A DNA stretch of 64,000 nt, from IMG/VR virus record IMGVR_UViG_3300033233_000006, positions 67,252 to 131,251 of that record. One strand, 5' to 3'. Made by a program: the position numbers and the translations under genes. Shown here in pieces: positions 29,582 to 37,568 of the stretch; position 1 is the first letter of the stretch; each line of letters starts with the position of its first letter. The notes beneath the pieces are model-generated. The model saw nothing but the letters and a program-made list of their open reading frames with translations, had not been told where the DNA came from and made no database searches. The DNA comes from a virus.

Positions 29582-29899
29582 GTGAGGAAGGGCATCATCG
29601 GCCTGGCGCTCATCATCGTCATCGCGTGCCACGCGTGCTGCATCGACGACAAGAACGTCGATCCGACGAACAACGTGAGCGCCGAGTCCTACCGCGCCTG
29701 TGTCGTCAAGGTCCAGTCGAACCTCGTCGGCAACATCATCCCGTCGCTCCAGGCGATGAAAACCGGTGACCTCGCTTCGCCGAGTCCACAGCACACGGCG
29801 AAGTGGTGGGACGCGAAGATCGGACTCATGTCCGACACGGCGACGCTCTGCTCCGACACGCTCGCCGGCTCGAACGTCGGCACCGGTGGCGGCAAGTGA
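29582..29899 (+). CDS. Secreted/lipoprotein-like protein
   Basis: MRK, hydrophobic stretch, then Cys cluster; GGAGG RBS. Confidence 0.6.
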   Translation: MRKGIIGLALIIVIACHACCIDDKNVDPTNNVSAESYRACVVKVQSNLVGNIIPSLQAMKTGDLASPSPQHTAKWWDAKIGLMSDTATLCSDTLAGSNVGTGGGK

Positions 29900-30381
29900 G
29901 CGCCGTCGACCAGGAGAAGGCGCGCGTTCTCATGCGGAGCGCGCTCGAAGCGGCAAAGCCGCAGCTCCTCAATCTCGTCTCGACGGCGAAGGACACGTTC
30001 ATCGCCTCCTTCGGCAACTGGGTCCAGTCCGCGCACCGGAGCCGACTTGAGGAGCTGTTCGTCACCTCGGGGCAGGCCAAGATCGCGGTGCTCATGGCAG
30101 CGTCCGAAGCGGACGCTCGCGAACAACAGGACATCTTCGAGACGACCATCGCCTCGATCGAGACGCTCGGACTCGCCGTCTGGATCACGGCCAAGGCCGA
30201 GGCCGTCGCCGCGCTCAAGGCGACGATCAACCAGATCCTCTCGACGATCGCCGTCGCGGCGGGCGTGGTCCTCAAGATGGCCGTCGAGGCGTTCGTGCCC
30301 GGAGTGGGGGCCGTCATCGGCCCGATCGCCGGAGCCGGTGTCACCTTCGCGCTCAACAGCGCCTTCGGAACGTCGTCGTAG
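29896..30381 (+). CDS. Hypothetical protein with hydrophobic C-terminus
   Basis: GTG overlaps the upstream stop; C-terminal hydrophobic helices. Confidence 0.55.
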   Translation: MSAVDQEKARVLMRSALEAAKPQLLNLVSTAKDTFIASFGNWVQSAHRSRLEELFVTSGQAKIAVLMAASEADAREQQDIFETTIASIETLGLAVWITAKAEAVAALKATINQILSTIAVAAGVVLKMAVEAFVPGVGAVIGPIAGAGVTFALNSAFGTSS

Positions 30382-30431
30382 CTGCGTCCTAGACTGCCCA
30401 TCAAGCACTTACGGAAATCCTCACACAGTGC

Positions 30432-30461
30432 TTGACGCCCAGGCTCTCATCGCGGTAGAAC
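30432..30461 (+). promoter_or_regulatory. Sigma70-type promoter for the intergenic RNA
   Basis: TTGACG-18-TAGAAC. Confidence 0.6.
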
Positions 30462-30467
30462 GTGCCC

Positions 30468-30777
30468 ACTCGATGAGCATCGGGTTGGCGCTGTCGGACT
30501 GAACGCTACTCACGTCGATCAAATGCGGGACGCGTCGAAAGGCGCGTTCAGGAAGTGATCGAAGGTCGTCGACTACGGGTCTCGCGGACCCGGGACGGCG
30601 GCTGACGCAACCGATGCGGTTGCGACTGGGTGCGGGGAGCTTCGACGACGAGAGGGGAAGGGAAACCGGACCAGCTCGCGCGCGACCCGTCGGCTGTGTC
30701 CCTTCGGGACCCGAACCGACAAGGCTCGATGTGCTTCGACTCGGGAGGGCCGCCAGGGAGACCTGTGCGGCCTTTTC
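30468..30777 (+). ncRNA. Unassigned highly structured RNA (~300 nt)
   Basis: Promoter upstream, terminator downstream, paired ends, nested stems (CGATCA/TGATCG, GTCGTCGA/TCGACGAC, TGTCGG/CCGACA), GAAA and TTCG tetraloops. Confidence 0.65.
30748..30777 (+). terminator. Intrinsic terminator
   Basis: GGCCGC...GCGGCC stem followed by TTTTCTC. Confidence 0.65.
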
Positions 30778-30837
30778 TCGTTCTAGGCGCCTGGTGCGCT
30801 TCTCTCGCGCAAAGCATAATGGGTTCGGAGTTGATCC

Positions 30838-31542
30838 GTGCCCAACATCAACCGAGCCGTCGACGCCGGTCTTATTTCGACCTCGGTACCGGCATCGGTG
30901 GTGATGTGGCCCGAGCTTACTCCGGCCCCGCACACCAAGCCGAACCAGGATGAGCTGTTCGTCTTCCAGTACTGGCCCGAGTCGCTTACCGACACGGAAG
31001 CGCCGGACTACGCGGAAAAGAAGATCCCGGGCGGATCGCACCCGCTCTACCAGTGGACGGGCGGCACCGGACGCGACATCAGCTTCACGGCCCACTTCAC
31101 GGCTGAGATCGACATCTCGCCGGCCAGCGACGCGACGCTCGACCAGGTTCGCCTTCTCCCATCTGGTCGTTACACGGTCGACGTGGCCGCTGCTGTAGCT
31201 CGGTTGAAGTCCTTCCTTCGCGGCGATTACCAGGACGGGTCGCTCAACGCCGCGGCCAAGCCGCCAAAGAAGCTCTACCTCGCCCTGGAGAACACGAAGC
31301 TCGGTGGCGATCACGAGGAGATTCTCGTGATTCTCCGCCAAGCTCCGATCGTCTACCAGTCGTGGTTCGCCAACGGCTCGCCGCGGGTGGTCGAGGTAGC
31401 CTGTTCGTTCTCGGAGTGCGTGCAGCGGAGCAACGCCGACAGCGAGAGCACTTCGCAGATCCAGTTCATCGGACGGTCGTCGTTCGAGACGGCTGGGAAG
31501 CGCTACAAGTACCGCGGCGCGGTAGATAGGGCGATCGGCTGA
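30838..31542 (+). CDS. CIS tube-like / tail tube initiator protein
   Basis: FQY.PESL.D, IPGGSHPLYQW.GG..R.ISF, F..G.PR motifs. Confidence 0.75.
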   Translation: MPNINRAVDAGLISTSVPASVVMWPELTPAPHTKPNQDELFVFQYWPESLTDTEAPDYAEKKIPGGSHPLYQWTGGTGRDISFTAHFTAEIDISPASDATLDQVRLLPSGRYTVDVAAAVARLKSFLRGDYQDGSLNAAAKPPKKLYLALENTKLGGDHEEILVILRQAPIVYQSWFANGSPRVVEVACSFSECVQRSNADSESTSQIQFIGRSSFETAGKRYKYRGAVDRAIG

Positions 31543-35739: not shown

Positions 35740-36324
35740 CTACTTGCCGTGGAAGCTGCCGGTGGGGCAAACGGACTGGAGTGCCTTCGTGCGGCGTCCG
35801 ATCTCGCGCGTGTACTTCTTGATCTTGGTCTGGGCGAGCTTGAGCTTCCGACACCAAAAGACGAGCTTCTCCTCGGCCTTGGCGATGCGCGCCTTCTGGA
35901 GATCGGTGCCGACGAGGCGCTCCTTCTTCGGCTCGACCTTGGGCCGGAGGACAAGCCCCGCGGCCCACGGGCGCAAGGCGTCCCAGTTGAGATGCCGGTC
36001 GTTGATCCCCAGGCAGGAGAACTTGACGCCCCATTCGATCGCTGCGCAGACGTGGGCGAGCTGCGCCCCCGTAAGCGTTCCGCGCGGGTAGTCACCGGCC
36101 TTGGCGAGCGCGGAGACGGCGTCGTCACCGAACTTCTCGGAGACGCCGACCTTGAGCGTGAAGCCGCGATCGCTTGCCCCGCCTATCGCGGCCTTGGTTC
36201 GCCCGCGGAAGGTCTTCACCTTCACAACCCTCTTGCGAAGGGAGGCACCTTCCGCGCGCGCACACGCGAACACAAGCGCGCGCACGTCGTCGCCGTCCCA
36301 CCGCGAGTCATTGACGAGTCTCAT
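35740..36324 (-). CDS. Hypothetical protein
   Basis: MRLVNDSRW start overlaps the upstream stop; basic coiled C-terminus. Confidence 0.6.
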   Translation of the reverse strand: MRLVNDSRWDGDDVRALVFACARAEGASLRKRVVKVKTFRGRTKAAIGGASDRGFTLKVGVSEKFGDDAVSALAKAGDYPRGTLTGAQLAHVCAAIEWGVKFSCLGINDRHLNWDALRPWAAGLVLRPKVEPKKERLVGTDLQKARIAKAEEKLVFWCRKLKLAQTKIKKYTREIGRRTKALQSVCPTGSFHGK

Positions 36325-36836
36325 GCCTTCTTTTTGCCTTCGGGCGCCAGGGTGCCCTCGGCGTAGAGCTTTCCGAACTGCTCCCGCCACGAGACGAAGT
36401 TGGTCGCGGCGAATGCCGACGCCTCCTCTTTCGCGTCCGTCTGGGCATCGGTGGCGACGGCGGGCGTTCCAGCTGCCTCGCGGATCGGGCCGCTCGGGTC
36501 CCTCGCGAACTCCTTGACGACCTCGGTCGGCACCTCGACGACCCTTCCCGACTCGGTCGTCGTTTCCGTCACCTCGGTCTTGGCCGGCGCGCTCTGCCCG
36601 AGGCAGATGGCGCGAATCCGGTCGAGCGCCTGTCCCATGCGCCCACCCTCGCCGTGCGAGTCGAGAATTGCGGCGATCGCCTGGGACTCGGGCGTGTTGG
36701 GCTCGACCACGAAGGCGACCTCCTGCGCCCGGATCTTGGCTCCGGCCTCGACCTTGGCGACCAGATCGAGCCGAGCGCCGAGCTTGGCCTTGAGCGTGTC
36801 GAACGTGTTGCGCGTCGTACGGATCATCTCGGACAT
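36321..36836 (-). CDS. Hypothetical protein
   Basis: AAGGAG RBS; part of the minus-strand operon. Confidence 0.65.
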   Translation of the reverse strand: MSEMIRTTRNTFDTLKAKLGARLDLVAKVEAGAKIRAQEVAFVVEPNTPESQAIAAILDSHGEGGRMGQALDRIRAICLGQSAPAKTEVTETTTESGRVVEVPTEVVKEFARDPSGPIREAAGTPAVATDAQTDAKEEASAFAATNFVSWREQFGKLYAEGTLAPEGKKKA

Positions 36837-36845
36837 GGTCTCTCC

Positions 36846-37412
36846 TTAGTTCCCTTCTTCGTCGAGTGCGGCGATCTTCTCGACCACCGTGGGCTCGACG
36901 CTCACCATCTTGATACCCATCTCTGCGGCACAGGTCGGCCCCAGGCCGGTAGCGATCGACTCCGGGACTTTGAGATCGCGGCTGCAACGCCCACAAAGAC
37001 CGACATGCCAGATGCGGACCTTGTGGGCGTTGGACTTCTTGGCGCGAAGGTCGCGCAGTATGTCGCCGAACAGGTTGACGTTCTCGGCGGTCGCGAGCTG
37101 GTTCTTCGCCGTGCCCTTGGTCGTGCGAAACGACTGCGGGTCGATCACGCCGAGGTAGATCGGCTTCGTGTCGCCGATCGCGCCCTTCACGAGCGAGACG
37201 AACCAGAAGTCGAACCGCTTGACGATCGTTTCGACCTTCCGCCCCGGGTGCTTCGGATCGTCCACGAGCCCGCGCTCGACCTTCTGCTCGACGAAGTAGG
37301 TGTGGCGCACGCCGTCGGCGATCTGCTCCAGGGTGACGTAGCACCGGCCAGCGAGCAGGAACGCGAGCGTCGTATCGTTGTGCTGGAGAATGTGCTGTTC
37401 GTGCTTCGCCAT
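36846..37412 (-). CDS. Zn-finger protein (DUF6011-like)
   Basis: WH.G.CGRCSR.L..PESI..GLGP.C motif. Confidence 0.7.
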   Translation of the reverse strand: MAKHEQHILQHNDTTLAFLLAGRCYVTLEQIADGVRHTYFVEQKVERGLVDDPKHPGRKVETIVKRFDFWFVSLVKGAIGDTKPIYLGVIDPQSFRTTKGTAKNQLATAENVNLFGDILRDLRAKKSNAHKVRIWHVGLCGRCSRDLKVPESIATGLGPTCAAEMGIKMVSVEPTVVEKIAALDEEGN

Positions 37413-37433
37413 GTTCGCTTCCCTTCGACTCGT

Positions 37434-37459
37434 CAACACCCGACCACGGAGGAGTTGCA
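37434..37459 (-). promoter_or_regulatory. TGCAAC-N14-GTGTT motif copy 1
   Basis: TGCAACTCCTCCGTGGTCGGGTGTTG on the minus strand, upstream of 37412. Confidence 0.7.
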
Positions 37460-37568
37460 GGTCGCGAGTTGAATCTCTCAAAGCGTTCTACCCCGGCCCC
37501 CTAAGAGTAGAACGGGTGAGTCGAAGGAACCTGACAGAGAGGTAGAACGGTGGAGTGGAAGTAAGGGA

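Follow-up and report, generated by a model that had tools for sequence, protein, structure and literature searches.

A promoter-to-terminator unit ahead of a tail-tube gene in an uncultivated giant phage: a candidate gene for a lineage-specific non-coding RNA

The 64 kb of DNA analysed here (the window) form the right-hand part of G000, a viral record of 131 kb that is estimated to be 46% complete and has a G+C content of 64%. Its source is an uncultivated giant phage, because a 287.5-kb contig encodes a tube protein 98% identical to the window's and one of the related records is a complete genome of 275 kb that has terminal repeats. Among 50,697 records of cultured phages, neither the DNA of the gap described below nor the tube protein found a match. 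All credible genes surrounding this gap are on the + strand. Its upstream neighbours comprise a 2OG-Fe(II) oxygenase and two proteins that match tail-fibre PHROGs, while downstream (30838..31542, + strand) is a tube-fold gene of 234 aa with a GTG start and a GGAG at 30827-30830; the gap thus lies inside the virion gene cluster, as the first-pass annotation of the window had proposed. The window's tube protein itself has no Pfam or PHROG match; among 13 aligned relatives, nine match Pfam CIS_tube and four P2 GpU (E≤0.01).

The gap (30382-30837, 456 bp) separates the + strand genes at 29803-30381 and 30838-31542, and none of its frames carries the GC3 signature of the genome's coding sequence. 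Stop-to-stop frames of 69-133 codons span it, run through the terminator described below and enter the next gene out of frame. Five such frames were searched against Pfam and gave no match at E≤1; tblastx between homologous gaps revealed no protein-level signal and no amino-acid conservation, and tblastn with the neighbouring proteins found no trace of these genes in the gap. The original description of some 450 bp devoid of a credible ORF is therefore borne out by its length, GC3, Pfam and stop-to-stop frames. At the homologous loci L007, L019, L021 and L025, a gene of ~125 aa (N-terminal MAE(V/W)T..., DDGFQ motif) lies between the homolog of a glycine-rich 192-aa gene and the counterpart of the gap's RNA; this gene is missing in the window (on the 29803-30381 side) and in L027, with no detectable remnant.

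Within the gap, a sigma-70-like promoter, TTGACG-18-TAGAAC, occupies 30432..30461 on the + strand (-35 at 30432-30437, -10 at 30456-30461). The sequence is found where it had been reported, and its designation as a promoter rests on conservation in homologs: read by eye, L007, L019, L022, L027 and L028 have TTGAC, TTGAA or TTGCA, a spacer of 16-18 nt and TAnAAn, 3-6 nt before the first hairpin of the RNA. The last base of the -10 is not the canonical T in several family members, and both the window's promoter, with TAGAAC in place of a -10 ending in T, and the bulged terminator escaped a simple consensus scanner. Just past the upstream stop codon, an inverted repeat, CAAGCACT-N17-AGTGCTTG (30402..30434, + strand), overlaps the -35 element with its second arm; it is possibly an operator or a 3' hairpin of the upstream mRNA. 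The 9-mer CAAGCACTT also directly follows the stop codon in L007. Promoters of the RNA's type occur twice in the 131 kb of the record, and the RNA's first hairpin, P1, is found together with its promoter once in the record and in none of four related genome records. A free-standing HNH endonuclease gene lies at G000:C1:35600-36771, 31.5 kb to the left of the window; it comes after a 627-codon ORF and a terminator hairpin, and has a near-identical promoter, TTGAC...GCGGGTAGAAC.

With its 5' end placed from the -10 and its 3' end from the T-tract of the terminator, the predicted non-coding transcript covers 30467..30784 (+ strand, ~318 nt), which agrees with the earlier proposal of a non-coding unit of ~300 nt with its own promoter and terminator. 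It opens with P1 (30467..30487), a 5'-terminal hairpin whose core, ACUCGAU/AUCGGGU, encloses the loop GAGC and covaries among homologs. The remaining + strand elements are H3 (30515..30562), in which CGAUCA/UGAUCG closes an internal loop and a 9-bp GAAA-capped stem; H4 (30564..30603), a predicted pairing of GGUCGUCG with CGGCGGCU around GGGUC..GACCC; H5 (30606..30624), GCAACCG-AUG-CGGUUGC; H6 (30650..30677), predicted to carry a GAAA tetraloop and purine-rich 3x3 internal loops; H7 (30688..30721), GUCGG/CCGAC around GUCCC-UUCG-GGGAC; and an intrinsic terminator (30743..30784), a bulged GC-rich hairpin followed by UUUUCUCGUUCU. L007 has a hairpin that by eye is built similarly to H6. Most of these local elements had been read directly from the DNA by the first-pass annotation, and the computed ensemble retains them: CGATCA/TGATCG around GACGCGTC-GAAA-GGCGCGTT, corresponding to H3, has pair probabilities of 0.88-1.0, GGGTC/GACCC 0.99, GCAACCG/CGGTTGC (H5) 0.87-1.0, GTCCC-TTCG-GGAC (H7) 0.86-0.87, and the terminator GGCCGC/GCGGCC with its TTTTCTCGTTCT 0.99-1.0 at -27.1 kcal/mol.

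The three long-range helices of the same annotation fared differently. Its 5'/3' closing helix, TGTCGG/CCGACA and GTCGTCGA/TCGACGAC are all complementary on paper, but each has a probability of ≤0.01 in the ensemble of the 30462-30785 transcript, and TCGACGAC as the alternative partner of H4 reaches 0.01. The best fold that contains all three is 18 kcal/mol worse than the minimum free energy (MFE) fold. The closing helix needs the 3' strand of P1, and P1 is the sole helix backed by comparison; when the RNA is started at 30467, a closing-type pairing does show in the MFE fold. Two 5'-3' pairings that looked compensatory by eye were rejected across the homologs: a long-range helix after P1 (Fisher p 0.93) and a pairing of the P1 3' strand with the 3' tail (Fisher p 0.58).

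As a whole, positions 30460-30790 fold on the + strand to -164 kcal/mol (z -3.27), with 1 of 100 shuffles as good; on the - strand z is -1.57, with 9 of 100 as good. No run of 5 or more unpaired nt is predicted in the window RNA, and a search for antisense targets within the 131 kb gave a longest complementarity of 14 nt (E 0.13). Among public runs, no RNA run was found to contain the gap sequence; two DNA runs contain it as contigs, and the second, a sediment run, has a 194-nt contig that is identical to 30427-30620 and adds no variation.

A separate promoter, TGGTGC-N17-CATAAT (30792..30820, + strand), lies between the terminator and the tube gene's ribosome-binding site (RBS). It belongs to the tube-fold gene, is not part of the RNA and is conserved in most of the relatives shown. 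In the form TGGYGC-N17-CATAAT(GG), it precedes the tube-gene RBS in L002, L004, L005, L007, L020, L022, L025, L027, L031 and L034, by ~5-12 nt and always just 3' of a strong terminator; it is not evident in L019. CATAATGG has one exact occurrence in the window. The -35 part of this promoter is unlike TTGACA and may be read with a phage-specific factor. Because the tube gene has its own conserved promoter between terminator and RBS, the RNA is unlikely to be the tube gene's leader.

Homologous loci were collected through the tube protein, 7 from viral contigs and 28 from metagenome contigs; an alignment query gave a further 16 viral-contig loci, mostly in the same records as the first 7. The tube protein's relatives on record include one at 98% identity (P0001) and four at 66-70% (P0002-P0005), the set P0001-P0006 spanning 98-58%. 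A like-built unit sits at the identical position in six other distinct contigs, which encode tube proteins with 42-57% identity to that of the window: L007 (321 nt), L019 (228 nt), L022 (420 nt), L027 (468 nt), L028 (195 nt, with an identical sequence in L021) and L036 (551 nt, with L035 identical). L031 corresponds to the L027 RNA in the latter's 3' half only (65% identity over 269 nt), without promoter or P1, while L020 and L034 are RNA 3' ends cut by the contig ends.

Most relatives have no RNA-bearing gap, among them L002-L006 (48-50% tube identity), L030, the low-GC loci L054 and L056, and the distant loci; L006 is the locus in the complete 275-kb genome, G002, which has no RNA. At the distant loci, the tube gene directly adjoins a small ORF together with a long one (about 530-680 aa) on its upstream side. 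In RNA-less relatives that do have a gap, it holds a terminator and TGGYGC-N17-CATAAT before the RBS, and nothing else. At L025:1130-1393, in the RNA's place, there is an ORF remnant with a weak match to the N-terminal part of a TnsA-like nuclease (E 0.0022, short of the Pfam cut-off). The terminator and tube promoter of L025 closely resemble those of L007. The presence of the remnant in L025 where L007 has the RNA suggests that the position ahead of the tube gene is a hotspot for insertions.

Across the family, conservation is confined to the promoter, P1 and the terminator. P1 (7-8 bp) is present in all promoter-bearing members, and in an alignment of seven sequences 54 of 56 cells are paired and 4 of 8 pairs have changed on both sides. 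None of 500 shuffles matches its paired share or covariation score, and controls slid along the sequences are 16-49% paired; P1 was also tested on six sequences. The terminators consist of a long hairpin and a pyrimidine-rich T-tract, at the same place in the family and in the RNA-less L002, L004 and L005. A second, two-tier hairpin, P2, is limited to L007, L022 and L027 (28 of 29 cells paired, three double changes, 37 of 500 shuffles as good), and the window has no P2-like hairpin.

Between P1 and the terminator, little is held in common. The RNAs, 195 to 551 nt long, can hardly be aligned, and their whole-length pairwise identity is about that of shuffled sequence, compared with 52-72% for the tube genes (over the longer gene's length). 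Nhmmer linked the window gap to no homolog. The window/L007 alignment gives no sign of a consensus fold (z +0.77, with 150 of 200 shuffles scoring as well), and a covariance model of H3-H5 (113 nt, 43 pairs), searched unfiltered over 12 loci, missed the syntenic L007 RNA at E≤10, its best match (E 0.14) being coding noise; this search thus gave no homolog support for H3. The comparison that the first-pass annotation had called for, of homologs and their covariation, therefore succeeded in part: homologs exist and P1 covaries, but no other helix does so across the seven full-length members. The suggestion of a large structured RNA or ribozyme is not supported, since P1 alone covaries, the window/L007 alignment lacks a common fold and the H3-H5 model misses L007.

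Pattern searches beyond the collected loci added no members. The pattern GCGGGAC...GGGAAACC...GCGCNCGAC in viral contigs matched L007's contig and one coding chance match (L018), and a P1/P2 pattern matched L007's contig and two low-GC coding chance matches. In genome contigs, a protein scan gave no match, and the P1/P2 pattern gave 116 scattered matches, of which 111 failed a crude promoter-or-P2 filter and the remaining 5 were unlike family members. A search of viral contigs with the upstream protein found no relatives, and BLAST of the RNA against the related genome records returned short chance matches only.

The bodies of the RNAs, taken without P1 and the terminator, were also folded one by one. 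On the + strand, all seven fold better than dinucleotide shuffles (z -3.11, -0.85, -1.12, -2.50, -0.93, -1.67 and -1.51), the excess being weak in five of the seven; on the - strand, z runs from -0.84 to +0.74, with one body at -1.82. All seven RNAs also have more G than C (skew +0.03 to +0.21), as against -0.01 to -0.09 in five flanking genes, a bias that could come from mutation in unconstrained spacer.

Within one subgroup, the body itself is conserved. L027, L031 and L036 have in common a hairpin with three compensatory pairs and conserved loop and linker motifs; in these three (and partly in L034, L007 and L022), a hairpin with a GGGUCA-type loop is accompanied by a UUCAC(C) motif downstream, features with only vague counterparts in the window. 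For L027 and L031, the consensus fold of the whole region has a z of -6.46, with 0 of 200 column shuffles as good; for the body only, z is -2.47 (4 of 200), and for the reverse complement -1.48. A conserved motif, GAUUCACCUC(C/U/G)U, was seen in the 3' part of L027 (~960-990), L031 (~410-430) and L034 (~10-30), with UUCUUCACC in L036 (~1945-1960). It resembles the anti-Shine-Dalgarno end of 16S rRNA and could pair with ribosome-binding sites; its core varies.

Searches with Rfam 15 agree with the earlier statement that hallmarks of RNase P, SRP, 6S, group I and group II RNAs are lacking. Over the whole window at gathering score, the one match is a full-length tmRNA gene at 61138-61593 (RF00023, 117.9 bits, E 1.9e-45); ARAGORN reported zero tRNA or tmRNA in the window, despite this gene. 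Searched at E≤10, the gap gave four matches, all at chance level (10-12 bits, where the cut-offs are 37-191), and within the RNAs of seven homologous loci nothing was found at E≤1 except one match in L036, which scored 16.9 bits where the cut-off is 55. The scan that had been asked for thus produced no strong match to speak against novelty. A sponge of the CsrB/Rsm type was considered and rejected: GGA is not enriched among the seven RNAs, and 19 of 49 GGA are mostly unpaired in the MFE folds. In the trinucleotide counts, made on the RNAs of the window, L007, L019, L022, L027, L028 and L031, GGU is over-represented (76 versus 53 expected, z 4.5) and UCC depleted (17 versus 35 expected, z -4.0) relative to dinucleotide shuffles.

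Several known systems resemble the unit in part. The '6S' RNA of lambda pR'-tR' is a short terminated phage transcript ahead of the late genes, and here too virion genes are immediately preceded by a sigma-70-type promoter, a few hundred nt of RNA that lacks an ORF, and a strong intrinsic terminator; in contrast to lambda, the next gene has its own conserved promoter and the RNA opens with a covarying hairpin, and no Q-like factor or binding element was identified for the window RNA. HK022 put RNA is a hairpin pair at the start of a phage transcript running towards terminators. Two 5' hairpins likewise occur in L007, L022 and L027, but not in the window, so the pair that would mark a put-type element is not common to all members. 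Giant phages have a few stand-alone RNAs, with roles almost all unknown. GOLLD (RF02032), ROOL (RF03087) and cow-rumen-2 (RF02947) are similar as promoter-to-terminator structured RNAs in large phages, but the gap and the seven homologous loci matched neither these nor any other family in cmscan and have no conserved multi-helix core. The PeSLs (promoter-early stem-loops) of T4-type phages are short, sequence-conserved and numerous in each genome, with the stem-loop serving as a terminator (PMC2839356). They share with the present unit a sigma-70-like promoter joined to stem-loops, set in a region of a large phage genome that is plastic, and a like promoter belongs to the mobile HNH gene of this phage; unlike them, P1 with its promoter is single-copy in 131 kb and leads into 200-500 nt of RNA, and many near-identical copies flanking variable genes were not found. 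In the cultured jumbo phage PA5oct of Pseudomonas, four ncRNAs were found by RNA-seq (PMC7318152), and the likeness is that of a giant phage with a few stand-alone ncRNAs of unknown role.

We conclude, with modest confidence, that the gap holds a stand-alone gene for a folded ncRNA of an uncatalogued, lineage-specific family confined to a single clade of uncultivated high-GC giant phages. The unit has the features of an sRNA gene, namely a predicted promoter of its own, no ORF, an intrinsic terminator and conservation in relatives. The cassette is kept at the same place in six contigs, P1 covaries, the bodies fold strand-specifically and the tube promoter is retained in relatives with and without the RNA. 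On the other side, the window RNA has nothing measurable in common with its homologs beyond P1, and the locus is plastic: G002 and others lack the RNA, L031 lacks promoter and P1, and L025 has a nuclease remnant. Building on the promoter-to-terminator structure and P1 as observed, we infer that the sigma-70-like promoter, of the same type as that of the HNH gene, would be read by host-type polymerase, probably early in infection. The transcript would open with P1, whose most likely role is to shield the 5' end or to act as a handle for a protein, and would go on into a fast-evolving body of stacked hairpins before the strong intrinsic terminator frees it, shortly before the promoter that belongs to the tube gene. 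The RNA probably acts in trans. As no open stretch of at least 5 nt is predicted and no long antisense match was found in 131 kb, we lean weakly towards a role for the window RNA, by prediction almost fully base-paired, as a protein-binding or decoy RNA rather than a base-pairing sRNA.

The main rival, which we regard as unlikely, is that a mobile early-promoter cassette landed before an existing terminator, so that the RNA is a functionless by-product of the intervening spacer or of the decayed remains of an inserted gene, for instance a homing nuclease. A promoter of this type does drive the free-standing HNH gene, which likewise follows a structural gene and its terminator, RNA-less relatives have just the terminator and tube promoter, and L025 has its TnsA-like remnant (E 0.0022, below the curated cut-off) at the RNA's spot; bodies of 195-551 nt that cannot be aligned and the varying content of adjoining genes, such as the absence of the DDGFQ-motif gene from the window and L027, also fit. 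Such a by-product would sit poorly, however, with the compensatory changes that keep P1 in seven sequences, with retention of the cassette where tube proteins are only 42-57% identical, with strand-specific excess folding in 7 of 7 bodies and with the L027/L031/L036 body, conserved with compensatory pairs; nor was a protein remnant detectable.

A special form of the ncRNA-gene reading, to which we give rather little credence, is that the RNA is an early-made hypervariable decoy. P1 would be the stabilising or loading handle, and the fast-changing body would mimic or soak up a host factor or defence sensor; an arms race over the decoy would therefore make the bodies differ from lineage to lineage while cassette and place persist.

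Slightly less probable again is a cis-acting leader, either a put-, nut- or Q-like element for processive antitermination, whose promoter-proximal hairpins would modify RNA polymerase or recruit a factor and so carry transcription past the terminator into the tube operon, or a riboswitch-type attenuator of the tube gene. The order of promoter, promoter-proximal hairpins, strong terminator and late genes would by analogy recall lambda pR'-tR' and HK022 put, and L007, L022 and L027 have P1 and P2 as a two-hairpin unit at the 5' end. Against this, TGGYGC-N17-CATAAT is conserved between terminator and RBS, in RNA-less relatives as well, P2 is confined to these three loci with no matching hairpin in the window, and no conserved aptamer-like core was found; for a riboswitch or attenuator, the intervening promoter and the unconserved bodies both count as negative findings.

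It is very improbable that the RNA is a ribozyme, self-cleaving or otherwise, or a large RNA whose tertiary architecture is conserved. The fold of the window RNA is unusually good (z about -3.1 to -3.3) and includes GNRA and UUCG tetraloops, and no Rfam family is matched; yet no ribozyme family matched at E≤10, the long-range helices are unsupported and the conserved, covarying multi-helix core expected of this class was not found, P1 being the only such helix (the H3-H5 model misses L007, z is +0.77 and lengths run from 195 to 551 nt). The RNA does not look like a ribozyme with a conserved core. About as improbable, and if anything more so, is a primer transcript of an origin, for which T4 and ColE1 origins are the comparators: a promoter-driven G-rich RNA would form an R-loop, as the G-rich non-template strand in all seven RNAs and the ORF-free, promoter-driven unit would allow, but a strong intrinsic terminator frees the RNA, the cumulative GC-skew minimum lies ~5 kb away, near the - strand ORFs with coding GC3 at 36321-37487, and close relatives including the complete G002 do without the unit. 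A missed small protein-coding gene can practically be set aside, given that the frames of 69-133 codons across the gap have no coding GC3, no Pfam match and no amino-acid conservation, and overrun the terminator.

Taken together, the results favour, on balance, a lineage-specific phage ncRNA gene, an element that is uncatalogued yet of an ordinary kind, and a new principle would follow only if diversifying selection were shown to act on the variable body. As such a gene, the window RNA would define an uncatalogued family built of a promoter, a covarying 5' hairpin, a variable body and a terminator. Its position ahead of the tail-tube gene is fixed, and the clade that carries it is known from metagenomes only; both the mining of metatranscriptomes and the building of a new RNA family model thus gain a concrete target.
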